The translations under genes were made by a program, and so were the position numbers. From the NCBI GenBank assembly GCA_045837725.1, contig JBEWZL010000044.1, forward strand, positions 124,001 through 188,000: a stretch of DNA of 64,000 nt, given 5' to 3'. Positions within the stretch are counted from its first letter, which is position 1. Each line of letters starts with the position of its first letter. Below are positions 6,237 through 56,376 of this stretch, piece after piece. The stretch is from Vermamoeba vermiformis (Eukaryota). The notes beneath the pieces are model-generated. The model was not told where the DNA came from and did not search any database. It worked only from the letters and a program-made list of their open reading frames with translations.

Positions 6237-8801
6237 TCAACTTTGATCTTGTTGCAGTTTCGTCAATAACGTCAATACCCAATGATAAGTATTGGTTCGG
6301 CTATTTCCATCGTCAAATGTTTTAAGTGTTTGTACGTTCTTCCAGGCAGCTTCAGGATCAAGAATCGCTTGGGCCATGAAAATGAATCCCTTCCAAGTCT
6401 CCTCAAGAGGCGGGTCTTTTCTCGTCAAAGTTTTTTCCAAAATAGGAAATTCGTATTTGATCCATTCAGGCTCGAGTAGCTGACGAGTTACTGGCGTGAA
6501 AGGTAACATTTGGATGCAGTGAATGAACTCCACATTAGCTGAAAACAAGTGGTCAGCGTGGGTAAAAAAATCACGATGTTGCGACATACCTCCAAACCAC
6601 GTGGCATAATCGACCTTTGAAGACCATAAAACCCCGACTACGGAGTTTTTGGCAAATACTGGATCGTAGATATCAAAGTTCTCTGGGTACATGTGCCAAT
6701 ACTTTTGCGACGATCTGATCTCCGTCGCGAGAAGCACTCTGCCAAGATTTGATGCGAATTCGTCACCGACAGCCAAGCCCCACAGATGCACCGCATAATA
6801 GGCATTAACTGCTTCAGAAGTCGATTCTTGGTTCTTGTCATCTACAACAGAAAATTAGATCTAGGGACTGAAATGAAATTTCACGTACCTCCAAACTCGA
6901 ACAGTCCTGAAGCCCAAGAGTGACCCAAGTACCAGTCTTTGTGTCTAGTGACAGGGAAGTAGTTATCAGCGTGCGAAGGGTTGGCAATATCACGGATCAG
7001 ATCCAAGACGTAATCGCTGTACTTTGATCCCCATTCTTTGTCTTCTTTAGCGATCACCGCTGCAGCATAGATCCAATATCCGTAATGGAAATCTGACCAA
7101 TCAAATCGTTAGCACGAGTTTGACACGTGTCAAAGTTCAAGTGACACTTACGGTGATCGTTGTACCAGCCTTGACCGAACTCGTTTCCGGAGTTTTTGAT
7201 GCCCTCCGTAGAAACAATGCCACCCCACGTCGAATCGTAGATCAAGCTGTCGTTGCATTGCCCTTCCAGACGAGGTGTCAGGACCTTCTTCATCGACTCG
7301 CGGATCTCTTTCGCTGTAGTGTTGTCGCCAATTTGATCGGCAATTAAAGCCAGTCGGCCCATTGCTGCGACTTCTTTGCCGAAGAAATACGTGTCTTGAG
7401 CTTTAGGCTGCATATTTTTGTCTTCTTTCAACACGGTTTGCAAGATCTGCACAGCTTGATCTGAAAATTGAGTTTTTTCAAACCATCGGACTTTAGTCAA
7501 TTCTTCTTGTAAAATCCATTCGTCGCCAACAACGCCTGATTACTATATTAGGAAATTTAGTTTTTGGTGAGATTTTGACGTACCTGTCATTTTGCCCTTG
7601 ATTGTCTCGTAAGAATTTTTCATGATGAAATTTTTAGGCTTGCCGAGGCTGTCTTTGTGATGAGGCAAAGACATCATTAAAAGATCAATAGCAGCACGTT
7701 TTTCAACGAGCCATTTGAACGAGATTTGCGCAATATCACCGACAACTTCGTAGCTAATCTTGCTGCCAACAGGAACGGCACCGCTGTGCAGCTGCAAATT
7801 GGTCGCGTCTTCCATTGACAGAAGCAACGCAGCTCTATGATATTTTGTGGTTAGTATGAGCTTGCCGGTCATAGTAAAATAACGTGTGATTTAAGCGTAC
7901 CGCATGAGGCCATTGTATCGCTGAGTGGCTTCAAGTCGATTGGTCGTAACGTTGAAAGTTGTTTGGCCGTCCAAAAGATACAACATCCAAGTCTTGCCGT
8001 TGTTCATTATCACTTCAAATTGTGATCCACTCACGGTACACGGCACTGGCGAGTTGTTCACTGAAAGAATGGCGTGCACAGTGTCGAGCAAGGGAAACTC
8101 GGAGTTTTGATAGAGTACTGTAACATAAGGACTTCCATAGGCAATAGGAAAGGTCATTACAGGTTGCTTTGAAGCTGATAATAAATTGAATTATTAAGAG
8201 ATCAGTACAAATGTCAAAGTGTCAAAAACGTCGAATTGAATTTCCGGTTCATGAACAAAGTCAAACAAGGAATGCGTACCTCTATCGATATATTGCATAG
8301 TGACAGTCAAAGGGTCATAATCATGTAAAATTCTGTCGCATTCAATAGCTTTGACTTTGAACGATAAATCATGAACGAAACTCGTGAGAACGAACTTGTC
8401 CGTGGCAGATCTGTCTCAGAAGTTAATTTAAGCCATAATAATTATTCAATTATTACCTGTTAGGATATCCAAATTCAAATCCGTTGGCTGCTGCTTTCAT
8501 ATAATAAGGCAAAGGCATGATCGGATTTTCACCTTTGCCTAGGACAAGATCTGTGAGCCATTGGTTCGTGGGAAATGGCGCTTGTACTTTGCCCCATAAT
8601 CTATAATAAATTAGTGAATATTTACCACCAAACTAATTTGTTGGAATGACGATCTTGAAAAGCGTGTCAGAGCTCGCTCGATTATATTATTAATTAATTT
8701 ATTACTTACGGAGATGGCTTTAGAGGGTGCTTATCTGTGGCATTGAATAGAGGAAGCGCACCAGACTTGAAAGTTTGTTCTGAAAAACCTCGATCGGTCA
8801 T
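6237..8801 (-). CDS. Endo-1,3-beta-glucanase, glycoside hydrolase family 81 (spliced)
   Basis: GSPYVT, YETIKGKM, DTYFFGK, YNDHHFHYGY (across an intron), QESTSEAVN, EFIHCIQMLPFTP and FDDGNSRTN motifs. Confidence 0.92.
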
Positions 8802-9303: not shown

Positions 9304-12300
9304 TTATTCGGGATCCTCGAAACAAATATCCTTGTGCTGCATCGTCTTCCAGTCGTCCACTTGACATTCTCTGCTGCAATAATAAGCCACGCACTTGCTA
9401 CACTTCTTCAGCTTGACGTCTGTGTCCGGAACACCACAGTACCAACAGACATTAGTGTATGGACGGTCCTGCAAAATGATCGCAGTCATCGAGTCAACGC
9501 ACATGCGCGTGCTGCCAATACCGCCGTGGATGCGCGGATTGAATATAGTAATCTTATCGCCGACCTTCAATTGCGCAGCGTAAATGCATGTGAGCATAAT
9601 ACACTCGCCTAAACGGTCTCTAATGACGGTCCAAGTCATGCAACCCGTCGTAGGCCGTGTAATGATCGTAGCGTGCAAATAATGATTGGTGTATTGGAAG
9701 TCCTCGGTAAAGTCAATATTCCTAATGAAGAGCTCTTCGGTGCATTTCTCCGATAAGTCCGAGGTCTTGCCAAACACGGTCCTAACATCGTTAGGGATAC
9801 TTTCCAATAGTTCACGGACAAATATCGCTCGTTGATTGATGACCAATGGCTTGCCGTTAGTTCCAAACCAGTCATTTTTATCTTCGTAAAGCTCTTTGTA
9901 CTTCTTCGCTATGCTTGGTACGCTTAAAAATGTTACTGTATTAGCTCACAGTAACATAAAATCACTCAAAATGAACGAAATTTCACAGATTAATATCATT
10001 TTGTGCTAGCAACGCAATGACGAATAAAAAATGAAAAAAGAGTCGCCCAGATCTGAAGAAAAAATTTGGTCACTTACGTCACGATCTCGGCCGGAGGTGT
10101 CCAACCAGGCACAGTAGCCATTCGTTTGTCGAGTTTACGTCTCATGCCACGCCATTGTGACCCTTCGGTCAAGAACGCAAACTCTTGTTTCTCGGCCTCC
10201 AACAAACTTGCGTAAAACTTTAGCGCTGCATCCCAATTACTCGCTTTGATCGCACAAAATGCTGCACAAATGCAAACTATTTGAAAAATAAAATAGTTAG
10301 TTAAAAAAATTTCGGCGACTATCTAAAATTTTCTTAAAAAGTTAAATTCGGATCTCGTAATTTTTTTCATTATTGTCTTATTTGGACTTACTATCGACGG
10401 CTTCTACATCCTCCAATGGCAAAATGGTTAATAAATCCTCGTAAATTTCGACAGCTTCTTTGTACTTCTGATGTGCGAGCATGATGTGACCCTTGGTATT
10501 CGCAACTTCAATAACTTCTGTGAGGTTCTCCGGGTTCATTAGTTTTTCCGCTTTTAAAATTGCCGGCATTGAATCTTCATATTTCCCGTGCCAAGAAAGT
10601 TGTTGTGCGTAATTCTGCCACATCAATGCCGACTCGGGGAATTTTTGCACGCCTCGTTTAAGCCACTTTAACTGCTCAGAATCGACGTACTTGCAAATGA
10701 TTGCATCCTCCGTCTCTTCATGCTGCAAAGCTGTATTGATCAGCTGTGTCGTCATCTCGATGTGTGCTGGGAGCAAAAACACGAGGTACGTGCAGTACTT
10801 GAGGGCAGCAGCGCGCATTTGAACGAACTCCAAACTATCTTCCAATGTACATTTTTTCTCTTTGTAGCATCGTTTGACGATTTCATGAGAGTACAACGAG
10901 TATTTGAGTGCCTGTTTCAGGTATTTTCCATATTCGGACGTTGAATTACTAATTCGCGGAATCATATCTTGCACTTCATCGACCAACCCATTTTTCTTTT
11001 GCGTTTTTGCTTGTGCGGTCAAATCGAGCTGGATGACATCTGTCAAAAAAACAAATCAGCTATAATCACTCTAATAGACCCGATTTTCATCAAAATAGTC
11101 ATGTAAGGTTTCAGTTGAAAATTAGCTCATTAATCTTAATAGATAGAAAAATTGCTACGAACATAATTTAGAACTATTAAATTAATTGAGGAAGGTTTAA
11201 TTAGTACAGTCCGTATTCTACGTACCAGTGTCGCTAGTAATTTGACTACGCAGCTCGCGCAGTGCGGCCAGATGGTCACCAGCCACGTGATAGCCTTTGT
11301 CCACTGCACGTTGCAGCCACTTCTCGGCCTCATCGTAGTTCCGTTCCACGGCCTTTCCTTTGATGTAACACTCCGCGACTTCTTCCATGGCTGACACGAG
11401 GCCTCCCATGGCTGCGGCCAATAACAGTTTGAAGCCCTTGGTCTTGTCTTTGACCACGTGAGTGCCGCGTAGGTACCACGAACCTAATTTCCACTGCGCC
11501 ATGTCCATGCCGTTGTCTGATGCTTTTGTCACCCATCGCAGGCCTGTTGCAACGTCTGGTCTTTTTCCCACACCGTCAATGAGACACACGCCGTAGTGGT
11601 ATTGAGCGCAACACACCGCTGCAGTAAAATCGATTAGACTCGTGTAAATGAACAAAAATTAGCTTAATAAACAACATATCCGCATAATACTGCTTTTGGA
11701 GCTAAAACAGGACAAACTGGATGCGGATCGGAATTTAAATGTAAAGATAAACTCAGTTTAAAACGACTTACGCCAATTAGTAGTGCCATCAGGTTTGCGG
11801 TCAGGCAAGGCAATTACTTTTTCCATCCACTCAATGCCTTGGGCCAGATCTTGTTTCATTCCACGACCGTCCATGCAACATTCCGTCTATGAGCACATTT
11901 AGTAATAGTCATATGTATATCGAGAGATGATATTACCATGCACATCATGCCCTCAAGACTGCCTTTATCGGCTGCTCTCCTGAAGTATGTAACAGCTTTT
12001 TCAAACTGCGGTAGACCTCGATGACCGCTCTCGTACATTCGACCGCGCAGGTAATCTGCATAGCCTGTGCGATTGTCTGCTCGAGCTATGACTCGTTCTA
12101 TATTCTTTTCATTTACTGGCTCGCCTTCCTCAGTCTAGAAAGAATTAATAAATCGGATCAGGAAATGTAAATTGAATTTGTGGTTCTTATATGATTAGTA
12201 TTCTTACGAATAGTCCTAGCTCTTCAAATACGGGCGCGTGATGCGTTAATGGATTATCTGCTCCAATTTTCGTTGACTCGTACTTGGCTAAAGATCTGTA

Positions 12301-13819
12301 GTTGAACAACTCTTCGTTGTTAGGATCATGCGAAAGAGCCAATTCCAAAGCTATATTAAATATAGGCGTTAATAATTCTATGCCAAACACCAGTTTTTCA
12401 AGTAAAATAATATTATTAAAAACGTTAAGAACAAGAACACATGGCAAATAATAATACCGAGGATAAAATTGCAAAGATTAAGAAGGCGATTGAAGAGGCT
12501 AACAATGATATTCCTCCAAGGGATTATAGAGATAACTATTTGAAGATAGATCCGATCGAGGAAGAAGAACTTAGGAAGCAAGCCGAAGCGTTCAGAAAAC
12601 GAATTAAACCGAGAACCAATCCAAATGTAGTCTCAATTGCAATACTGGTAATTATTTTAGGCGTTGTAATCGCAAGAATATTTTTGTAAATTAATAAAAA
12701 TAATTGTATAAATTTTCGCTTGGCTTAGCTTTTAAAAATAATTGTATAGAATATTTCGACTTACTTTTGACAGCCTTTCCATATCGTTTTTGCAATAAAT
12801 AAACTTGTCCTTTGACCGAGTAGTAAACGGCCAGCGAATCCGGTTGAGCCTTATGAGCAGCCTTTACGTCGGATAAAATGCGTGCTAATATCTGCTCTTC
12901 ATCTTCTTCGCTCAATGTTTGATCTCGTACATTTTGGCGGTATTGGAGTAGCTTCAGTTGGGCTTGCGATCTGCCGAAGAGTAAATTTCCTCGTTGTTCT
13001 TCGCTGGTACCGCGTTCTTGTAATGCTTTTCCAAATAAGGAAACTGCTTTAGAATACTGATGTGTATTCAACGCTTCTTCTGCGAGCCGTTGAAGATCTT
13101 CAAGCGATGCGGCGGATGCAGATTCGTTGAGAGACGCTGTAAATGAGCTCAAATCGTTCAGCTTATACTTCTCGATATCCACTTTCTTCTCGCCAAAATA
13201 AGTAAGAGCTGCGCGCAGTACTTTGAAATATTGGTCAAAAATATTCGGATCCAATTCGATCATGTCACGCGGTGCTGCATGCGCTAGACTATTACGAATA
13301 GTCTTAATGTTTCTAACATGCTCGTCTTCTCGTTGAGTCTTCTTATTATTTGGTACTCTTATACCATTTATAGCTGTAATTAGCGAGGATAAATCCCACG
13401 TAGATGCAGTGCCGGATCTGATCGTCTCTTGCTTTTCAATCGTGCATTGTGATAATGAATCGATTTTATCTACGTAATAATTGCCCATGCTAGGATTGTC
13501 TTGCCATTCAAGGCCTGTTCGCTGCTTGAATCGCTCTTTGAATATTTTCAGCAGATGCCGCGAAGTAGCATTCAGCATATATTGAATACGGGCAGTTTCT
13601 CTGAGATAGAATAGGATTTATTATAATTTGACGTTTAATAATGAACTACCATCAAAAAACAGATTTGGATCTAGCCGTTATAATTTTCTTTATCGTTCAA
13701 AATCTGATTGATTATTGATCAAAATAATTTTCGATCATTTAGATCGTTAATATTCAACCAAGTTGGTTATTTGCCGAAGCTTGATCAACCTCGAATCTAA
13801 CTTACGTTCGTTGTTGCAT
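9304..13819 (-). CDS. Multidomain protein: HEPN-like (RNSLAH), TPR, Sel1-like repeats, TPR, C-terminal MYND zinc finger (spliced)
   Basis: WDLSSL...IRNSLAH at the N-terminus; TPR across intron 12351-12764; Sel1 repeats (AQWKLGSWYLRG, AEKWLQRAVDKG); CWYC...CSKC...YYCSRECQVDDW...HK..C. Exons are linked by canonical GT-AG introns; phases were checked for the 5' junctions. Confidence 0.8.
12441..12689 (+). CDS. 82-aa tail-anchored membrane protein nested antisense in an intron of the HEPN-TPR-Sel1-MYND gene
   Basis: Intact ATG-TAA ORF with a charged helical body and C-terminal hydrophobic segment VVSIAILVIILGVVIARIFL; AATAAA just after the stop; lies entirely within intron 12351-12764. Confidence 0.65.
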   Translation: MANNNTEDKIAKIKKAIEEANNDIPPRDYRDNYLKIDPIEEEELRKQAEAFRKRIKPRTNPNVVSIAILVIILGVVIARIFL

Positions 13820-14116
13820 CTTTTTTGAGTGTTATCCTTATATGGCAGGCATCTGTTATAATCACGACTGTTTGTTCTGTCGAGGACAACAGGAAAATAA
13901 GGAACAAAATCTTTTTATGTAGTTTATTACGTTGACCACGTATCTTGTAAAAATGAATGTATTTATATTGTTTATAGTTGCTATTGGATATTTTTTGTAT
14001 CGATTTCACCGCGATCCTCCAAGAATCAGAAAACTAGGAGGTAACTAACAAGATCTGTCCTTGAAGTCACTAAAATATTTTACTTTGCACTTATAATATT
14101 ATAATTATCGATTGTA

Positions 14117-16133
14117 ATGGTATTGCCGTCAAAGTGGCTGGAAACGCACGATATGCGGAAAAAAAATACTAATTTAATTTTTGCAAGGCAAATCCGCGCA
14201 GTTTTCAAATTGGGAAGGTCGTAACACGTGCTTAGTACGCAGTTATCATAAACCAACAAATAAAGAAGAAATCAAACAGATTCTGAAGGAAGCGTATGAA
14301 AAACATGAAAAAGTCCGCGTCGTTGGCGCAGGTAAGCGAATTAAACCAATTAAATAATTTTACTAAAACTACGTAATTAATAGTGATTATGAACGGCGCT
14401 TTTAATGCTTATCAGCCTAATAATTGAATTTTTGACAGGTCACTCATGGGGCGATAGTGTCATTACAAATGACCATTTAATATCGCTTGATAATATGAAA
14501 CGTGTCATATCAATCGATCATGCTAATTTGCTTGTCACTGTAGAAGTAAGAAATTCGATCTAGCACAAATTTCCATTTCAGATCGTGACCGATTATTTTC
14601 ATAGGGCGGCATTAGATTATACGAGCTCACGGAAATTTTAGAACGCGAAGGCCTTAGTCTTTATAATATAGGTACTTTATTACCGCAAAACACGTGCAAG
14701 TAAATTTTAATATTCTTGAAGGCACTATCAAAGAACAAAGTTTAGCCGGCGTAGTTTCAACTGCAACTCACGTAATACCCAAAATTAGATATTGCCATAA
14801 AAGGAATACGAGTGTTAATTTATTTCTTAGGGCACGGGTCAACAAATTGGCAGTTTTAGCTCATCCTTGCGAGGAATTGAATTTGTGACGCTCGATGAGA
14901 ACGGTGAACCGAAAATAATTCAGTGCTCTAACAGCGATAATACCGAAATATTCAAATTTGGACGCTGCTGCGTCGGAAGTAAGTCCATAAAAATTACTGA
15001 ACTACGTCTGAACTAGATCCACCGCAACTAAATTTTGCTATTTATACAAAGATATAGAATATATATTATGGATTAAGTACTAATTAGACTATGTAGCTTT
15101 TGGCGTTATCACTGAACTGACGATTCAAGTCAAAAAGTTGTATCGAGTGCGACAAGAACAAGAAGTGATTCCAATCGAAACTGTGTATAATAATTTCTAC
15201 GATTGGATCAAAAAAGAAGAGCGCATTAAGTTTTGGTGGTGTAAGTTAGCATTAAGTCATTATAGATACGCTAACTAAACTTTTTCACAGTTGTTCCGTG
15301 CAAGTTTGCGTTGACTTCGCGGTACTACGAAACAAACGATGAAATTTCACCGCTCAAAGTGCGCGTGATGCATTACTTTAGAGAAGATTTTGCGCATTAT
15401 ATTCAAGAGTGGGCTTTGTACTTGATCTCGAAAGTAAGTTTGTCGCTTTAGACAAATAAGGAAATTGCCTAATATAGTTACCACGATATAGTTCCCTTCA
15501 CTGAACGAGAAAATTATCACTGCGGCTGTTGGCAACCTTCCCAAGTTTGTTTTTACGGACAAAATGGTGAATGGATTGAACTCTGTCATCCGCATGAAGT
15601 ACGTCACTTTTTCCAAATATGGAAATATATTTATCGATCAGCAAGACCTAATTATTGTTGTACCCGACAGGCATTGCGAATTAGAGTATATTGTGGACTC
15701 GTCAAAGTCATTGGAGATTATGAAAAAGATCGAGAAAATGATCGGGGACCACAAGATCTGTTTGAACATGCCAGTCGAAATCAGATTCACTAAGAGCGAT
15801 GATATTCCGCTTAGTCCTATGTACGGACGAGATAGCACGTGCTTTACGTTCTTAGTTTACAATTTGGAAGATCATCGCGTGATCTACTTTGAGCAACTTG
15901 ACAAGATTTTTGCCGAGTATGGTGGAAGACCTCATTGGGGCAAATGGTTTGGAATGACCTGCAAAGAACTGCAAACGCTTTATCCGGAGTGGAATAATTT
16001 CTTGGCAGTACGGTAAGTGGTTTTTAGATGCGATCCGTAACTCGATCTAACAAATTATTCGTGATGCAGTGAGCGAATGGACCCGCACCAGATCTTTGTT
16101 AATGACTGGGTCAGAAGGAATTTTGGCTTGTAA
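14117..16133 (+). CDS. L-gulonolactone oxidase / D-arabinono-1,4-lactone oxidase-like FAD oxidoreductase (spliced; start approximate)
   Basis: FSNW, VRVVGAGHS, QSLAGVVSTATHG, PVEIRF...LSP, GGRPHWGK and DP..IF.N motifs. Confidence 0.9.
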
Positions 16134-23633: not shown

Positions 23634-25508
23634 ATGAGTCATTCAGACAAAGATAAGGTCAGTAAGCACGAACAAAAGACTTAAATCCGGATTTCAAACC
23701 GATTTTTTATTTGCAGCTAACTACTTACTTTTACGATTTAAATAACATATGTATATTTTTAACTTAACACCTTAAATTTATTAGGCATTACCAACGAAGC
23801 GAAAGAGCGTGAAACAAAATTGGAAAGATTTTATTAATAAGCACGGTGATAAAATCCCTGCATCGTGGAAAGACGGATCAAATAGGATCACAATAGAGAC
23901 GGGAGAAGAGCCATTTAATTTATTGCAAGAAGGATTGAAAGCTCGCTCGATAGTCCACGACAAATTTTTGATCGACTTTGCGTTACTTAAAAAGCCACAC
24001 GTATTAGCGGAAATATGCAAAATATTTAAATTATTAGAGGAATATAATAGATATTATGCACTGCAATTAAACATGACGGAGGTGATAGAAAACAACGAAC
24101 AAACCAGGACTTTTTTCAAACTGTTGACTTCAAAAAATTGCAGAATTAACAGCTTAGCAACAAACGTTGCATTATCAGCAGAATCAGCGTTAATATTCAA
24201 TAAGTTATTGGAACAAAACACCATTACAGATCTGGATTTGACAATTCCCACACCTGCATCCACGGGGGGAATTATTGCACACTGTATTGAAGGGCTCAAG
24301 GGACTAGCGAACAATAGAACTATTCAAACGTTGCAATTATTTGGACTCGGTGATGACCGCGAGATCTCAAAAATTCTCGAAAAAAATCATTCAATTACGG
24401 ATCTAGCGCTCGGATCACATGGTCTACATAATTTTAGTACAGAAGAGCATTTAGTACCTGCGTTAGCAAAAATGGGATCATTACAATCAATTTTTTGTTT
24501 TTTTGGTCTAAGACAACCGAAAAACTACGGATCTCTTTGTGCCGTCCTCAAAGGCAACAAATACTTGGAAAAACTGGTTTTTACTGAAATGTCATATGAA
24601 CCTACACTATCTAGCTCCGATTGTACGGCATTGGCAGCCGCAATAATGGCACATCCGTCGTTACAAAAATTAATTTTGCCGGGCATATCAATGTGTCCAT
24701 TAATTAAGGCAATTTCTGGCAGTAAGACTATAACTACACTAGATAAGGTACCTATCGAACAAATTATTACTGATGAAGAACTACAAAAATCGATACTTTC
24801 AATGAAGTAAGTTCCGGATGTACCTTAAAAAAAATTCTTTACTAATGTTATTTTACTCATAGATCGCTTCGAAAATTAACAATCGTTAGAGAAAATCATT
24901 ACGAAACAGAAGCGGAAAAAAAATCGCATCAATTTGATCTTTCAAACTTGGTACATCCGTCGTCTTCGATCCGAATCTTAGTGTTTGATAGGCTCATAGA
25001 CTACGAACCAACAGCGAAATTTATTGAAGCATTGGGCAATAGGACATCAGTTGAACAAATACGGATTAAAGAGCAGTTTCGATATTGGCCAGAAATTTGT
25101 CAAGCCAGCACAACGAATCCGTTTTTGATCGTTCAATGCAATCCAGTATGGGACCATCGTTATGATCAAATTAAATCTATCACAACGAAAAGAAGAAGTA
25201 TGATGATGGAGTTTAGAAGAGCAATCTCTTGCTTAAATATTCTCAGAATAATTCATTTGTCGACGGATCGAGGATTCTTTGCAACAATTCCAAACGAGAT
25301 ATTAATATTAATCCTACAAAAATTATCTATGGATCGAGACTTGGCACGAATCGATCGGAGCCTATTAACTCTTCAAGAAAATCAAATCCAAAAATTGCAA
25401 CAGATCGCAATCGAAAGATCTGTCCTGAAAGAACGAAATACGATAAAACGGCTACAATCACTATGGATAGACTATGGGATTAAAGAGATTTGTACACATG
25501 AAAAATAA
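23634..25508 (+). CDS. RNI-like leucine-rich repeat protein with C-terminal F-box-like motif (paralog 1)
   Basis: L.xN.TITxLxL repeats; C-terminal FFATIPNEILILILQKL; two introns. Confidence 0.75.
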
Positions 25509-30755: not shown

Positions 30756-32292
30756 TTATCCAAGAAGTGTCATTATAGCGAGAGTACAGAACATTACAAA
30801 CAAAGGGACAACGGTACCGGTGCCATGGGATACAACCGATGCATGAGGCTGTGCTACAGGTACTGACACAGTGCTCGGCGACGCAGATCTGTCACACAAT
30901 TTGGTCGCGGTGCACGAGACGTCCTTGGCACCATCGCGAGTGAATCGGAGAGCAAGTTCTATTCCAGCTTCTGTCGCTTTAATGCCATCAAGGTGCACTT
31001 CAACAGCACCACAGTCTGACAGTGTATTGATGGTGTAATAGTCCGTAATAGTGATGTTAGTGTCACAAAAAGAGGGTGACACTTGATCGTGACACGTGAC
31101 ATTTGTTGGCTCAATGAAGCACCCCTCGGCTCTGTACAAATAGCAACTAAGTTCCGATAATGTGCATTGATAAGCCAGAACAGTATTGTCGACTGGAGCA
31201 ATGGCAAATCCAAAACTACTGACTTCCGAACTTGCAGATTCGGCGGATCGAATTCTTCTTGTGTAGATCCAGCTTCCCGATTCATCTCTGTCGTACCAGT
31301 ACAATGAACCTGTTTGATTGTCATTAATAAGATCGACTGGAGCTGCCAGGACGAATGCACTATTGGACATCATCTCTGCTGCCAACGGAAAATAGCCCTG
31401 CGAATTCATCTGCAATTCTGTCGTGTAAAGTGTTTGAGTTAGAGTCCATTGTCCATTGGTATTATTTTTGGTATAAATTCTGGCTGCTTCGATTCTAAGC
31501 GACGTCGATAGCACGCTAGAAACGATTATGGTGTCAAATCCGTTGTATAAAACGTGTCTTATGGCACTGTCGAGGATAGGTTCCGTTGGAATATTAGTCA
31601 CTAGTGACCAAGATCTGTTGGCGTGTCGTTCGTAAACAAACGTTGAGTTGGTAGTGAATCCGGTAAAGTAATTTGGTCCAACTTTCATTAGAATAGGTCT
31701 GAAATCGACTATATTGGCTGGTACTAAAGTGGTATATTGCTGAGGAACCTCTTCTTGAATTAACGTCCAATTCTGGCCGTCAAACTCGTACGTTCGGATT
31801 GCATCTGGCCACAAAGCAACAAAAGTGTCGTCAGGAAATATCCAGCCAGTTGTATTTGGGAAATAAAAAGAGTAAGCTTTGGTAATAAGCCGTGACGCGC
31901 TGAGTTGGAAGAGATCAACGTATGGGTTGGCCACAACTGCGATCCAATTACCATTTGTCGATAAATTAGGGATTTGCTTCTTAGAATCAGTCACCAAAGC
32001 GGTCGTCTGTCTTGAATCTACTACATTATAGTTATTATCGGGGCCTCTTTTGTACACGAGTGCTAAGCTGTTTGAAAAATTGAAGGCGATTGCAATATCT
32101 TCGTAAGCGACTGCTCGAATGATTAAGAAGTTTCCTGAATTAATTGCTGAATCATTTGTTACTTTATAAGCTGGAATTTGCTGTTATCAGAGCGCTCGTT
32201 AATTATTTTGAAAAAGATCAGACACATCTTGTAATTACCTGGACTGCCTGAACGACAACGCAAAGGGCGAAAATAATAAATAATTTTAACAT
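30756..32292 (-). CDS. Secreted/GPI-anchored beta-propeller (FG-GAP-like) surface protein, copy 1
   Basis: Signal peptide MLKLFIIFALCVVVQA; W..TQ/FG.A repeats; Cys-rich NVTCHDQ domain; Ser/Pro linker and hydrophobic tail. Confidence 0.75.
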
Positions 32293-32449
32293 TCCCTCGT
32301 GTTGCGTTTTATACACTGATCAAAGATTAAAATCAATTTTGCGCAGTAAATCGCACGCGCCCTGCCACCTTTAAAAAGTGAAGAATCTATATTACACGTT
32401 GTCAATTACTAAGAGACATAATATCACTACACCGTCATTGTCGATTTAT

Positions 32450-33992
32450 TTATAATACTGCTATTAGCATTGTAAGAAAGAGAATCATAAGTGCTGACTG
32501 CAAGATCTGACTTCCGGATGTGTTATCTTTTGGTGGTGATTGCGGAGCCGAGACTGCCATGGGAGCAATAGGAGCTGCATTATCGCAAAGTGCGTTCACT
32601 GTGCACGTGACATCAGTTGAGCCAGAACGAGTGAATGTCAAGTCTAAGTAATAGCCTTGTGCATCGGATCTGATGACGTTATTGGCCTGAACTGACACTT
32701 CTCCGCACTTGGCAGGTGTGTTGATAGTATACAAGCTGTTAATATCGACGTCGAAGGATGAGCACGATGACAAGCGTTGATCATGACACGTGACATTTGT
32801 CGCCTCTTCGTAACACAACTCCGCGGTGTGGATGAAGCACGGAAACGAGTCTATGCCAGGAAGACATTCGACAGAGATTAAGCCGTTGTTGATTAGCGCC
32901 ACGGCCTGTCCAAAGCGTCCATCGTTGACAGCTGAAGTAACGCGTCTGGTGACATTCCAAGTGCCTGTCTCATCACGGTGCAGCCACCAAACTGAACCAC
33001 TGGTGTGGCCTTTAATAATATCTGGTACATAGCCATCGTTTGGTGCTGTGACGATGTAGTTGTCGCTGTCAACTTGAACAATTTCATCGCCAAAGTATCC
33101 GTAGCCAGTGATGCCTATTGACGCAGCTGCAATGCGCTGTGTTCGTTCCCAGCCAACTGCTCCACGTGTGTAAATAGCAACGTATCCACGAGGCTGTGAA
33201 ACACTGTCTTCAAAACTGGATATGATCAACGTATTGTTGCCGTCCCATAATAAATGCGTAAGTGGACTTTGAACATCTGCGTCAAATACAATAGGGGCAT
33301 CAAATACGGACCACGACTTGTCTTCGTTACGGTAAAAGATCTGTCCGCCAGTTGAGTACTGAATGCTGATGTAATTGAGATGTTTACGCAGGAAGAGAGT
33401 ATTACCACCTGCATTCGACTTTATCAATGTGTAGTTGTCGGGAATATCCTTGCGAGCTAACGACCAGTCGGTGCCGTTGAACTCGTAAGTGCAGATTGCG
33501 TCTTGAGTAAAAGCAACATAAGAACCGTCCTCGAATATCCAGCCACCAAATGGATTAGTGAAGTATAATGTAAATGTCTTATTAATAAATGTGGCATCGT
33601 CGTTGAGTTCGAAGATTTCGTGAGCCAAATCTGCTGCGCGAGCTGCCCATCTGCCGTTTGTTGAAACAATGATGCTCGTAGTGGACATTGTTGAATGCGG
33701 CCGCGAATCTACTCTATGATAGAACCCTGAGGCACCGCGTTTAAGCGACACGATTTCGTCTGTTGTCGAATCTAGCATTATGGCCAGATCGTCATGTGCT
33801 TCCAATGGGAAAGGAAGGGTTCTTGCGCTACCATACAAATAATAAGATTGCACAAAATCGGAAGAGCGCATTGCAGGAATATTCTACGATTTTTGAAATT
33901 AGTTACAAAATTTAGTTTGCGCTTGAACATACCGATAATGCGTCTGTAACGACGAAACAACACAAACAAAAAGTTATCAATTGCTTCAACAT
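32450..33992 (-). CDS. Secreted/GPI-anchored beta-propeller (FG-GAP-like) surface protein, copy 2
   Basis: Signal peptide MLKQLITFCLCCFVVTDA; GYFGDEI and GRFGQAVA repeats; shares STNG.W, YEF.G..W and NVTCHDQ...YTINT with copy 1; hydrophobic tail. Confidence 0.75.
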
Positions 33993-47922: not shown

Positions 47923-49782
47923 TTATTTTGCATGCGTACAAATCTCTTTGATACCATAGTCTAGCCATAGTAATTGTAACCGTTTTATCGTATTCTGTTC
48001 TTTTAGGGCAGATCTGTCGATTGCGATCCGTTGCAATTTTTGGATCTGATTTTCTTGAAGAGTTGAGTTATGATCGTTTCGTTCTAAGTCTCGATCTGTA
48101 TCAACTAATAATTTTTGCAGTATTAATTCTAATATCTCGTTTGGAATTGTTGCAAAGAATCCTCGATCTGTCGACGAATGAATTATTCTGAGAATATTTA
48201 AGCAAGATATTGCTCTTCTAAACTCCATCATCATTACTCCTCTTTTGATCTTAATATCTCTAATTCGCGCAGAGCGTACGTCCCATGATGGATTGCATTG
48301 AACGATCAAAAACGGATTCGTTGTGCTGACTTGACAAATTTCTGGCCAATAATGAAACTGCCCTTTAATCCGTATTCGTTCAACTGATGTCCTATTGTCT
48401 AATGCTTCAATAAATTTCGTTGTTGGTTTATAGGACCGGCTAGTAGCAAACACCAAGATTCGGATCGAAGACGATGGATGTACTAAGTTTGAAAGATCAA
48501 ATTGATGCAATTTTTTTCCCTCGCATTGTATATGATGAGTGGAAACAAGTGTTAATTTTCGAAGCGATCTATGAGTAAAATAAGATTAGTAAAGTATTTT
48601 TTTAAGGTACATCCGGAACTTACTTCATTGAAAGTATTGATTTTTGCAGTTCTTCATCATACTTAAGTTCTTTGATGGGTACGTCTAATGCTGTTATGGT
48701 TTTAATGCCTGAAATCGACTTAATTAATGGACACATTGATACTCCAGGCAAAATTAATTTTTGTAACGACGGATGTGCCATTATTGCGGCTGCCAATGAC
48801 GTACAATCGGAGCTAGACATAATAATATCTTGTTTTTCGATAAAAACCAGTTTTTCCAAGTATTTGTTGGCATTAATAACGTCACAAAGGATCTTCTTAT
48901 CGATCGGTTGTTTTAGGCCAAAATTGAATTTGATTGATTTCAATGACCCCATTTTGACTATCGCAGGTATTAAATACTCTTCTATGTTAAATGCATAATA
49001 ACCACGTGATCCAAGCTCGAGGGCAGTAATTGAATGATTTTTTTCGAGAATTTCTGAGATCTTGCGTTCACCATCGAGTCCAAATAGTTGCAACTTTTGA
49101 ATGGTTGTATTGTTCGCTAGTCCTCTGAGACCTTCAACACATTGTGCAATAATTCCTGTTGATGAACGTCCGGGAATTGTCAAATCCAGATCTGCGATGG
49201 AGGTGTTTTTTTCCAACAATTTATGGAATATTGACGCTGATTCTGCTAAAAATCCAACGTTTGTTACTAAGCTGTTAATTTTACATTTTTTAGAAGCCAA
49301 CAGTTTGAAAAAAGTCTGGTTTGGTCGTTGTTTTCCATCACATCCGTGGCACTTAATTGCAGCGCATAATATCTATTATATTCCTCTAATAATTTAAATA
49401 TTTTGCATATTTCTGCTAATACGTGTGGAATTTTAACTACTGCAAAGCTGATCAAAAATTTGTCGTGGACTATTGAGCGAGTTTTCAATCCTTCTTGCAA
49501 TAAATTAAATGGCTCTTCTCCCGTCTCTATAGTTATTCTATTTGATCCGTCTTTCCACGATGCAGTGATTTTATCTCCGTGCTTCTTCACAAAATCTTCC
49601 CAATTTTGTTTTACGCTCTGTCGCTTAATTCGTAATGCCTAATAAATTTAATTTATTAATTTAAAATACAGGTAAGCTATTTCAATCGTAATAGTAAGCT
49701 GCATTTTAAAAAATTGGGTTGAAATCCGGATTTAAGTCTTTTGTTCGTGCTTACTGACCGTATCTTCGTCTGAATGACTCAT
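47923..49782 (-). pseudogene. LRR protein paralog 2 with 1-nt frameshift (pseudogene or sequencing error)
   Basis: Close inverted copy of 23634-25508; ACCAGGACT in paralog 1 reads ACCAGACT here (about 49316), splitting the ORF. Confidence 0.7.
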
Positions 49783-49917: not shown

Positions 49918-51582
49918 TTATTTGCGCAGACAAATGCTGCGAATATCATCTTCAAGCCATAATAATTGCAATCGTTTCCTAGCATCTGGATCTCTTCCGA
50001 GTTTCGATCTGTCACTTGCGATCTGGACCAACTTTTTCAGGTGCCTATCGTCGTTCACGAATTGAAAAAAGGCACCTGGATTATGAAACGCACTTTTCCA
50101 TATTAGGACTAATATCTCGTTTGGAATTGTTGCAAAGATTCCTCGATCTGCTGGCAAGTAAATAGTTCTGAGAATGTTCAAGCAATTGATTACTTGTTTG
50201 AATGCTCTTATTAATATCATTCTAGGTGTGAGTATATCAAAGCGTTCATCGTCGTGCTGGTGAAAGAAATTCGTAGCAAATCGAACTTCTACGAACGGAT
50301 TCGCTCTTGTTGGGCGAGCAATACGGGGCCAATAAGCAACCGATTTTTTTAGTTTGATAAGCTGAACTGATGTATTATTCTCTAATGTATTAATGAACGA
50401 GTCTGTAGGGTTATATCTGCATCTGCTACAGAAAACTAGGGTTTGGATCGGAGATGCCGAGTGCACCAAGTTTGATAGATCCAATTCTGAGACACTTCCT
50501 TGGTTTCCTCTAGCAGCAAATATCAATTTTCGAAGCGATCTATAAGAAAAATAACATCAGTAAGAATTTTGTTAAGATACATCCGGAACTTACTTCATCG
50601 AAAGTATCGATTTTTGTAGTTCTTCATCCACCATAATTTGCTTGACAGGTACTTCTAGTGCTGTTATAGCCGTACTATCACATATTGCTTTGATTAACGG
50701 ACACATTGATACTCCATGTGATAAGCCGGGCAAACTTAATTGTTGTAACGCCGGATGTGCCATTAGCGTCATCGCCAATAACTTTGTTTCGTCTGTTGAT
50801 AAGTTAAATTCCTCTCTGTTATCAAATAAATAGAATTTTTTCAGGTTTTTGTTGCCTTTGATCGCTTCACTAATAGATCCGACGCTTTTAGGCGCCTCAA
50901 CGGAATCTAACTTGATCGACTTTAAAGAACCCATTGTAGCCAAACCAAGCAATATATCGTCTGAATTTAAATTTCTGCCGCTTAGATCTATTGAAGTGAT
51001 TGTATGATTTGCTGCAAGAATTTCTGAAATTACGGATTCGTTCTCAATCCCCGACAATTTCAATCGCTGAATAGTCTTATTTTTCTTTATGCCAGCCAGC
51101 CATTTTATTGACTGTTCCATAGTTTTGATTTGCGCGTGTTCATCGGTTGTCAGATTCAGATCCGTAATCGTTGTGTTTTTTTTCAGGAATTTGCTGAACA
51201 TCGATTTGGCCGTCGTGGATGATATATATACGTCGGTTGTAAATGAATTAATTTTGCATTTGTTGGACCGTAGCATTTTGAAAAAAGATTTTGTTCTGTC
51301 GTTACACTCCATTACATCCGGGGCACTAAGCTCTAAAGAATAATATCTGTCATGATTTTCTATTGCTTGTAATATTGCAAGTATTTTCGGCGAGGTAACC
51401 AACTGATCAATCACCGAAAATTTGATCCTAAATCCGTCTTTCGGTATTTCGTTTTCTTGCAACCATTCTATTAATAAATCTAAAGACTCATTGCCAGCAG
51501 TAATTGTAATCGTTGGTTCGTATTTCCATGACGGTGGAATCTGTTTGTGCTTCTTCAAGAAATCATCCCAGCCCTGTTTCAT
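49918..51582 (-). CDS. LRR protein paralog 3 (more divergent; start approximate)
   Basis: Shares MAHP.LQ.L.LPG, DEELQKSILSMK, the intron donor context and IFATIPNEIL with paralogs 1 and 2. Confidence 0.75.
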
Positions 51583-51848
51583 CCATTTTAATAAATATTC
51601 ACGTATTTGTAAAATATTATTTTGTTAACTTCCTTATTTTAACAAAAAATAACTGATCGGGAATTGATTTGGGCTCTACAACGGATTTGTTCTTAGCCTA
51701 TTTACCTCTCCTGTTCCGCTCATTTTACATTATTACAAGCTCAAAATATGGTGTTGTGCATTTCGTGTGGTGCGGAAAAAATAACGAACAACAAACAAAA
51801 GATTTTGGTGCTGGCCGGTTGAAATTAATTCGTTTATCAAGTTTATTT

Positions 51849-54571: not shown

Positions 54572-56376
54572 ATGCAACAATTCTGGCGTTCGTTAATGCT
54601 TGCTACACTGTTGTACGCAACTTTGGCAAACGCACGAACAGTCGTGCTCAACGTCAACGCGACTCGAGAATGTGGCCGAAATTCATTCTACAAAGGGTGC
54701 GAATTTACTGACCCAAAGTATTGGATTGGCAATATTGCTCCAGGTAATCCGGATCATTTTAACGACGAAATATTTTTTAAATTCGCTGCTTTTTATTAAA
54801 TTATTTTGTTCTAACATAACAATGGATAAAATCAAGATAAATTTTTAAGTTAATTATTATAATAAGCAAAATAAGACTCATTACCCGAAAGTTAAAAACC
54901 AAAAGCGAGCTAAATATAATGCTAAAAAACTTTATTCAGAGAACGGCGACGCAGTGATTATTCCAGGAGGATCTTCTTTCTTAAATTTGACGCAGCCCAT
55001 GACCTTAAAGAGTCTCGTCTTTGAAGGCAACGCCTCGACCTCAGCCTTGTATCCCTGGGTGAAAATTGCTTTCTCTCGCACGTTGATAATTGAAGACGTC
55101 AACCACGCAGGCTATGTGAAACTCGAACCTATGGCTGGCCGAATTGGCTACTACGCTATTGAATATATCAACTACCATTATTTGCATTACGCTACAAACG
55201 TTATGGCAACCATGAAAAATTTTACAGCGAGTACGTTAGCCGCTAGTGGATCGTCAATCCAGGTAGGAATACAACATTATATATATCTATTCTAACTATT
55301 ATGAAATAATAACGAAATTTTTTTTATTATTCTTGGAATTTTATTAATTTGTTATCTTCGCAGGCAGATACTCTAAATCTGGGGGGATTAGAACTTTATG
55401 GTGCTACCATTACGTGCAACTCTCTAGTTACTGAGCGGTACTATGAGCATTCCCACTACCGAGCTTCAATTAATTGCGCATCCGTTACATTTTCTGGAGC
55501 TGGGGATTATGTTGAAATGCACAACACCGAAATTAGGGCGGAACAAGTGAAGTTTAGTGGACATTTACGCTTCATTCAGATCAACGGAACAATTGGCGCA
55601 ACGACAGTAACATTCGATGTTTTATCGAGTAATGTTGAACTTGCTTCTGCGGCAACGTTGATCTCGCCGAATGCGATTTCTTTCTCAAATAGGATAACTT
55701 CCTTACGTAAGAAATATATATATGGATCCTGAACATAATATTAACGATAAAAATGAAATTCAATGCAGATCTGGACGGAACAATTTTTGCACCAACGGTT
55801 ACTGTGGATGCGCCATTTGTTGCGATGGGCGGTACCATCAATGCTGCCCAGACCAATCTCAAACGGCAAAGCAACTTTTATCCGCCTAAATGGTCGTCGG
55901 GTCCAGCACTTACTGTCAACGGCAGCCTGGCGGTTGGACCCGACCTCAAATGGACCGTCCAACGAGACGCTAGTTCTGGTGAACTAAAACTCGGGATGAT
56001 CGTTGTTGCCGGTGAACTAACATCTTACGATTCTTTTGCAAGCTACATCCTAGTCAGTTGGCAAATTGACCAGTTCATGGTGCCCGATCACCCCTTGATC
56101 TTAGCGCGCTACCAGAGCACTACACTCCATAGCGCCTCTCCGTACACGTATGAAGATAGTACAATGGCTTTCAAACTCACTCCCACTGAATTGATCGCCA
56201 CGTATAACGTCACAATCGCACCCAATACTCCCACACAACAAGAAACTGGTAGTAGTAATGGCCCTGCAGTAATAATCTTGAGCGTTTTGTGCGCGTGTTT
56301 GGGGGTAGCAGTTATTGGCTTGACTTTCGCGGTCTTCAAAAAGAGAAAAGAAGCAGCCTATGTACGTCTTCAGTAA
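54572..56376 (+). CDS. Type I membrane protein with signal peptide, beta-rich ectodomain and short cytoplasmic tail
   Basis: Signal MQQFWRSLMLATLLYATLANA; FTDPKYWIGNIAP..GD.V.I; TM AVIILSVLCACLGVAVIGLTFAVF; tail KKRKEAAYVRLQ. Confidence 0.75.

Follow-up and report, generated by a model that had tools for sequence, protein, structure and literature searches.

A spliced Vermamoeba vermiformis gene encoding a candidate regulated HEPN ribonuclease with TPR, Sel1, OB and MYND modules

The locus and its gene model

The stretch of DNA analysed in this study, hereafter the window, comprises 64,000 nucleotides of the amoeba Vermamoeba vermiformis (contig JBEWZL010000044.1 of assembly GCA_045837725.1, forward-strand positions 124,001 to 188,000). 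Our analysis concerns one minus-strand gene in it, whose product is a candidate ribonuclease (RNase) with a likely HEPN domain, TPR and Sel1 repeats, an OB fold and a MYND zinc finger. The gene occupies exactly the interval that an earlier sequence-only reading had given it. Its nine exons, with GT..AG joins, form a coding sequence of 3,165 nucleotides and a chain of 1,054 amino acids (aa) with zero internal stops, and the GC content is 23-33% in the introns versus 42-55% in the exons. The gene and its exons are as follows.

9304..13819, minus strand: HEPN-repeat-OB-MYND gene, from the ATG at 13819 to the stop that ends at 9304
13806..13819, minus strand: exon 1, with the start codon; its join to exon 2 is matched by loose ends (13600 and 13806) in public run X2
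12765..13600, minus strand: exon 2, HEPN and most of the first TPR block (gene model, Pfam, AF2 model)
12208..12350, minus strand: exon 3; joint 12134/12208 seen
11937..12134, minus strand: exon 4, Sel1; joints 12134/12208 and 11886/11937 seen
11772..11886, minus strand: exon 5, Sel1 (gene model, Pfam, joint in run contigs)
11226..11618, minus strand: exon 6, three Sel1 repeats; joint 11039/11226 seen
10392..11039, minus strand: exon 7, helical region and second TPR block; joints 11039/11226 and 10276/10392 seen
10078..10276, minus strand: exon 8; joints 10276/10392 and 9922/10078 seen
9304..9922, minus strand: exon 9, OB fold, MYND finger and stop (gene model, Pfam, run contigs, AF2 model)

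The proposal that these modules belong to one spliced chain was borne out by contigs from three of four public runs, in which six of the eight introns appear to be spliced: introns 3, 4, 6, 7 and 8 by exact joints and intron 1 by matching loose ends. The RNA origin of these runs is only guessed, they cover the gene at low depth and none of their pieces extends over all of it; one raw-read run (X9) placed three reads, none of them in the gene. Spliced joints of introns 2 and 5 were not seen in the run contigs at this low coverage. Both junctions lie in repeat regions, and all 14 single-chain homologues align through both of them.

It is extremely improbable that the gene divides at intron 2 into a separate HEPN-TPR gene (exons 1-2) and a Sel1-TPR-OB-MYND gene. 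Such a division would agree with the missing intron 2 joint, which says little because the run contigs cover the gene so thinly, and with the nature of this intron, which is the longest (414 nucleotides) and holds an antisense open reading frame (ORF) that has a paralogue; unspliced, exon 2 would stay open for 24 codons and then meet a stop. However, the intron 2 junction falls inside a TPR repeat that the 14 single-chain homologues cross in frame, homologue P0029 aligns in one unbroken piece over residues 1-1050 (E 5e-51, 24% identity), and the paralogues have the same module order, with a short gap at the place of intron 2.

The ORF nested antisense in intron 2 (12441..12689, plus strand, 82 codons) is a separate gene outside the candidate RNase chain. 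Its C-terminal hydrophobic tail (hydropathy 2.96) resembles that of a tail-anchored membrane protein, and a small ORF on contig C53 (L014) is similar to it (29% over 65 aa). An ORF as long as this one arose in 43 of 5,000 shuffles of intron 2, and coverage over it was zero in the public runs aligned.

The HEPN domain and its motif

The N-terminal part of the chain contains the following features.

13165..13599, minus strand: likely DZIP3-like HEPN domain, aa 6-150, all-helical (homologue and paralogue evidence, AF2 model)
13279..13296, minus strand: R-x4-H motif RNSLAH, aa 107-112 (R107, N108, H112), kept in four of four genome copies
13381..13398, minus strand: WDLSSL, aa 73-78

The intact R-x4-H motif and the accompanying WDLSSL were both found where the sequence-only reading had placed them, and RNSLAH is the sole R-x4-H in the whole chain. 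When the first 160 residues were shuffled 20,000 times, an R-x4-H arose in 20% of cases and an RN-x3-H in 1.3%; the motif is therefore weak when taken alone, and its weight comes from conservation. A phmmer search with the domain against 1.84 billion representatives gave 39 hits, of which P0002 and P0003 are close to paralogues of this genome and P0023 is a false hit, counted in the 39 but dropped from the profile and the tree. R and H were both kept in 35 of the 39 hits and N in 37, with three true hits having lost R or H (P0012, P0018 and P0024). Over 40 rows, R (93%), N (95%) and H (90%) ranked with the best-conserved positions in a domain whose overall identity is about 25%, and all three residues were invariant in the four genome copies at 38-42% identity.

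The evidence of these relatives makes it likely that the N-terminal domain is a DZIP3-like HEPN. The Pfam cut-off of HEPN_DZIP3 (PF18738) was passed by 15 of 30 scanned hits and by two of the three paralogues, which are 46-53% identical over the domain; at E<=0.01, 29 of 38 aligned members matched HEPN_DZIP3 and 18 of 38 matched HEPN_Swt1. The copy in the window passes neither model: its HEPN region reached only DUF4559, below the cut-off (22.7 of 27 bits), and no exon matched PIN or HEPN_Swt1 (PF18731) when Pfam was run exon by exon. Thus, among the HEPN classes that had been suggested, the DZIP3-like assignment holds by family evidence, whereas Swt1 proper, RNase L/KEN and Cas13 do not. A profile built from the 36 non-self hits scored the HEPN exon at 118.5 bits, a value that is partly circular because the hits were found with the window domain. 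Against the Protein Data Bank (PDB), the top two matches of the domain profile were Csm6 RNases, aligned on the motif and weak (E 0.028 and 0.076). The AF2 model of the exon 2 region (mean pLDDT 92) was all-helical, with the motif at the end of model helix 86-106.

Repeat, OB and MYND modules

Behind the HEPN domain lie five further modules.

12286..13113, minus strand: first TPR block, aa ~168-305, three repeats and a capping helix, spanning intron 2 (Pfam, fold searches)
11245..12074, minus strand: Sel1 block, aa ~352-560, five repeats (Pfam)
10179..10668, minus strand: second TPR block, aa ~691-815 (TPR_14, 24.8 bits against a cut-off of 23.5; aligned in full-length homologues)
9454..9762, minus strand: predicted OB fold, aa ~903-1005, nucleic-acid-binding class by fold (AF2, Foldseek, VIA)
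9322..9447, minus strand: MYND zinc finger, aa 1008-1049 (PF01753)

All modules of the previously proposed HEPN-TPR-Sel1-TPR-MYND layout are present in one chain, but that layout omitted the OB fold before the MYND finger. The Sel1 repeats form five stretches over exons 4-6 (exon 6, Pfam E 9e-22). The finger matches zf-MYND (PF01753) at E 8.6e-9 and 35.8 bits, with a cut-off of 22.7, and has eight of eight ligands (C1008, C1011, C1023, C1026, C1031, C1035, H1045 and C1049). The highest 19-residue hydropathy of the chain is 1.56, and no transmembrane stretch was found.

The first TPR block, whose Pfam match in exon 2 is weak (E 0.0016), has a co-chaperone-like fold in fold searches of the AF2 model, and its relative P0005 aligns to Hop with the carboxylate-clamp residues in register. 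The five clamp residues (K, N, N, K, R), as named in the part of PMC2865030 consulted, are all present in 8 of 22 complete rows, and at least three are present in 13 of 22. The corresponding positions in the window copy are Q175, E179, G214, A262 and S266 (none of five kept), and each of the three paralogues keeps one of five. Judging from these residues, binding of Hsp70/90 tails is plausible for the family and was probably lost in this amoeba lineage.

For the OB region, the AF2 model has a mean pLDDT of 76.5, with the OB fold at model residues 54-156. Foldseek matched it to MCM10 (E 5e-4) and to the TTC5 OB (E 7.5e-4), and VIA matched it to Teb1 (Z 10.7, root-mean-square deviation 2.9, 99 residues aligned) and TTC5 (Z 9.0, 2.7, 98 aligned). 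RPA, SSB, HIN, MCM and synthetase anticodon domains are also among the fold matches, the listed rows being OB-fold proteins, and these matches identify a five-stranded beta-barrel OB fold in the predicted structure. With the Pfam TTC5_OB model the window protein scored 12.7 bits against a cut-off of 30 (E 0.1), and P0029 gave E 0.0067. TTC5 is thus neither above its Pfam cut-off nor the best structural match, and it stands as one match among equals. The presence of an OB fold nevertheless opens an RNA-surveillance reading of the protein, which is weighed below.

Copies in the genome and relatives elsewhere

The genome searched comprises 43 Mb in 309 contigs, and the copy counts are lower bounds. 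We found at least four clear copies: the window gene, a full-length one on contig C246 and a tandem pair on contig C299, of which one copy ends after Sel1 and the other after the second TPR block. The four copies and P0002 form their own clade (support 100/100), so that a small lineage-specific set of paralogues does exist. A fifth gene, on contig C266 (L016:6957-9352 and L019:1177-2004), has TPR-Sel1-TPR-OB-MYND behind an N-terminal helical domain without R-x4-H, and is a possible decoy or partner. The register of this N-terminal domain is suggestive of a decayed HEPN, but that origin is not supported and we regard it as highly unlikely.

Some other observations were made on these contigs. 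The first copy on C299 (L006:2784-3117) could end after Sel1, or its reading frame could be joined by splicing to exon 2 of the second copy, and the resulting chain would then contain two HEPN domains; two HEPN domains also occur in P0008 (Adineta) and P0012 (Orchesella). Two long ORFs without a Pfam match (C299, L005:4111-6536, plus strand) adjoin the tandem pair, and by eye they may resemble NTPase-plus-nuclease effector proteins. A separate gene on contig C298 (L029:1444-1950, minus strand) has a Swt1-like HEPN above the cut-off, with R-x4-H, and is the sole PF18731 match in the genome. The actin family gave 123 matches genome-wide, many of them divergent actin-like genes and six of them identical copies without introns; the six score best against PDB 4efh, 1nlv and 3chw, which we take to be Acanthamoeba and Dictyostelium actins, and on this one gene the host looks amoebozoan.

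Full-length single chains were found in P0010, P0017 and P0029 (environmental), in P0025 from the springtail Orchesella dallaii, and in P0051-53 near P0029, and shorter forms of the layout occur in rotifers. Of 30 hits that were looked up, eight bear the name of an organism, namely four Orchesella, three Adineta and one Brachionus. Several relatives have no second TPR block or no OB-MYND end, and in P0184 and P0185 (Orchesella) the same HEPN type is fused to ankyrin repeats. The tree had 37 rows and left out P0003, P0008, P0012, P0023, P0028, P0035, P0184 and P0185; its deep branches are open and so reveal neither a donor nor the order of any transfer.

Word-based protein searches yielded none of 304 candidates, 4 full-length ones among 118 (a search swamped by Sel1/TPR proteins) and 2 of 7,999, both Orchesella HEPN-ankyrin proteins. 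No relative was found in viral contigs or prokaryote genomes by scans that detect close relatives only. With the same reach, one scan of metagenome contigs found no relative and another found four loci that match mainly the MYND end, and these negatives are weak evidence on origin because of that reach. As leads only, the ESM Atlas contained a DZIP3-HEPN/TPR/Sel1 cluster of 60 rotifer members (0.86) and MYND clusters from fungi (0.92-0.94).

Possible function of the candidate RNase

From its sequence, we tentatively read the protein as a soluble, regulated DZIP3-like HEPN endoribonuclease that acts most likely against invaders or in infection stress, a prediction to which we give somewhat less than an even chance. 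HEPN proteins typically homodimerize (PMC12165695, part consulted). By analogy with HEPN biology, two HEPN domains would pair into one active site, so that the enzyme would become active only when two chains meet or are set free. Judging from the anatomy of the chain, the TPR-Sel1-TPR solenoid may hold the HEPN domain and bind a protein cue, the OB fold may bind single-stranded nucleic acid as substrate or cue, and the MYND finger may dock partner proteins. Once activated, the enzyme would cut RNA, either that of the invader or that of the host to halt the cell.

The family behaves in a conflict-like manner, with a clade of its own, two copies in tandem, modules gained or lost and the motif lost in three true hits. 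Defence is slightly favoured by this lineage-specific duplication and module shuffling, by the patchy range and by the immune contexts of the HEPN family. In the parts of the literature consulted, defence roles are inferred for lineage-expanded eukaryotic HEPNs and DZIP3-like fusions with TPR, NACHT and DEATH are listed (PMC3710099), and DZIP3-like HEPNs are reported in variable immune loci (PMC9646362).

Several observations weigh against a defence RNase. The strain comparison, which used 36 coding differences (from 40 of 49 differences, with 4 upstream ones excluded), found 35 of 36 synonymous versus 21% expected, and downstream of exon 2, in the part where variation would be expected of a sensor, 23 of 23 were synonymous. 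This result confirms the reading frames and indicates strong purifying selection, which does not look like an arms race. The spliced contigs in three of four runs without a known challenge indicate apparent unchallenged expression, copy number is low (four clear copies), and the genes next to it, for a GH81 glucanase and a lactone oxidase, are metabolic. No NTPase family was found by Pfam in the eight coding exons scanned, nor any in the full-length homologues. As to the nuclease itself, repeated Pfam scans gave the window protein no PF18738 match, its HEPN domain matched none of the PADLOC families, and fold searches with the HEPN+TPR model (PDB, PDB-wide and viral libraries) gave TPR matches only and did not reach the HEPN part.

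The purifying selection and the apparent unchallenged expression would suit a housekeeping role, in which the same enzyme would be a chaperone- or ribosome-coupled RNA quality-control nuclease. A TTC5-like TPR-OB end would then recognise the nascent chain and rRNA, and HEPN would cut the linked mRNA or faulty RNA instead of recruiting a deadenylase. The order of TPR and OB mirrors TTC5, whose OB is among the fold matches, and the Hsp70/90 clamp of the first TPR block is complete in 8 of 22 rows. However, the OB folds of Teb1, RPA, HIN, MCM and synthetases score as well as TTC5 or better, and the clamp is absent from the window copy and reduced to one residue in each paralogue. Relatives with an organism name come only from rotifers and a springtail, a patchy range for a core function, and several relatives have no second TPR block or no OB-MYND end; we consider this role, the main rival of defence, somewhat unlikely. 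It is quite unlikely that the HEPN-like domain of the window copy is not an active nuclease and that the protein serves as an adaptor or RNA-binding scaffold. The window copy does miss HEPN_DZIP3, with only DUF4559 below its cut-off, catalytically altered members exist (P0012, P0018 and P0024), and the C266 gene carries TPR-Sel1-TPR-OB-MYND behind a domain without the motif, and a scaffold can therefore persist without it. Nevertheless, R, N and H rank with the best-conserved positions of a domain that is otherwise low in identity, and they are invariant in the four copies.

Within the favoured defence or stress RNase, a more specific version, which we regard as unlikely, would make the protein a member of an old NTPase-free, single-chain immune RNase family of amoebae, rotifers and springtails. 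Here, the OB fold would sense foreign single-stranded nucleic acid, and the TPR-Sel1 solenoid, ancestrally tied to Hsp70/90 and uncoupled in this amoeba lineage, would release HEPN. Such a protein would be RNase L-like without a second messenger and might act, for example, against giant viruses.

Genomic setting

The genes next to the candidate RNase are as follows.

6237..8190, minus strand: GH81 glucanase gene (Pfam)
~14030..16016, plus strand: lactone oxidase gene (Pfam), divergent and beginning close to the candidate RNase start; spliced joint 14038/14186

No sign of a multi-gene defence system was seen. Elsewhere, the window holds three related two-exon genes (23785-25508, plus strand; 47923-49372 and 49918-51624, minus strand) that are leucine-rich-repeat-like by eye; two ORFs of this set were scanned and had no Pfam match. 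A tandem pair of beta-rich ORFs at 30756-33883 (minus strand; 475-477 aa), both hydrophobic at the C-terminal end, and another gene, beta-rich and membrane-anchored, at 54849-56376 (plus strand) likely encode surface proteins, and the one ORF of this kind that was scanned had no Pfam match.

Significance

Free-living amoebae are hosts of giant viruses, and to our knowledge little is known about their cell-autonomous immunity. The window adds a probable amoebozoan member of the DZIP3-like family, with evidence on splicing and selection and with clamp loss, and would widen the range of the family beyond animals and Capsaspora. That a probable amoebozoan, rotifers and a springtail have a fixed six-module chain in common, at about 25% identity, suggests that its mechanism is conserved, and the copies without the OB-MYND end and the copy without the motif provide natural controls for a compact test case. 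If the protein acts in quality control as an RNase, it would combine a TTC5-like sensor with a nuclease of its own; if it serves neither defence nor quality control, it would add another member to a known domain family. No DZIP3-like HEPN protein with tested activity was found in the literature looked at. The DZIP3-like family and its HEPN-TPR fusion are already in print (PMC3710099 Table 1, in the part consulted). We found no paper on the HEPN-TPR-Sel1-TPR-OB-MYND layout, which the architecture lists in the supplement of PMC3710099 may already include.

Comparison with known systems

Csm6/Csx1 and RNase L are ligand-gated HEPN RNases. The window protein shares with them the logic of a sensor plus HEPN, together with the weak Csm6 profile match on the motif, but it has no CARF, ankyrin or kinase domain, and no second-messenger-binding module was identified in it. 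It differs from Swt1, a nuclear RNase of PIN and HEPN, in having no PIN and no HEPN_Swt1 match.

TTC5/STRAP is ribosome-bound in PDB 8bpo and recognises the nascent chain and rRNA. It resembles the window protein in having a TPR block followed by an OB fold, but it is without HEPN, Sel1 and MYND, the OB match is no better than those to other OB folds, and identity is 10-13%. Hop/Sti1-type carboxylate-clamp co-chaperones share the fold of the first TPR block, and their clamp is kept in relatives, whereas all five clamp residues are missing from the window copy.

The bivalve HEPN-NACHT proteins, which are NLR-like (PMC9646362, part consulted), carry the same HEPN family as an N-terminal effector before repeats. 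The window protein differs from them in having no NACHT NTPase, in its four copies against about two hundred, and in that no strain-level diversification was seen. Among the DZIP3/hRUL138-like HEPNs (PF18738), its Sel1, OB and MYND modules are absent from the fusions that the part of PMC3710099 consulted lists, its host is an amoeba whereas the family is described there as mainly animal plus Capsaspora, and the window copy falls below the Pfam model. It is nevertheless like these HEPNs in its N-terminal helical domain with R-N-x3-H, its fusion to TPR and its lineage-specific expansion (PMC3710099 Table 1).

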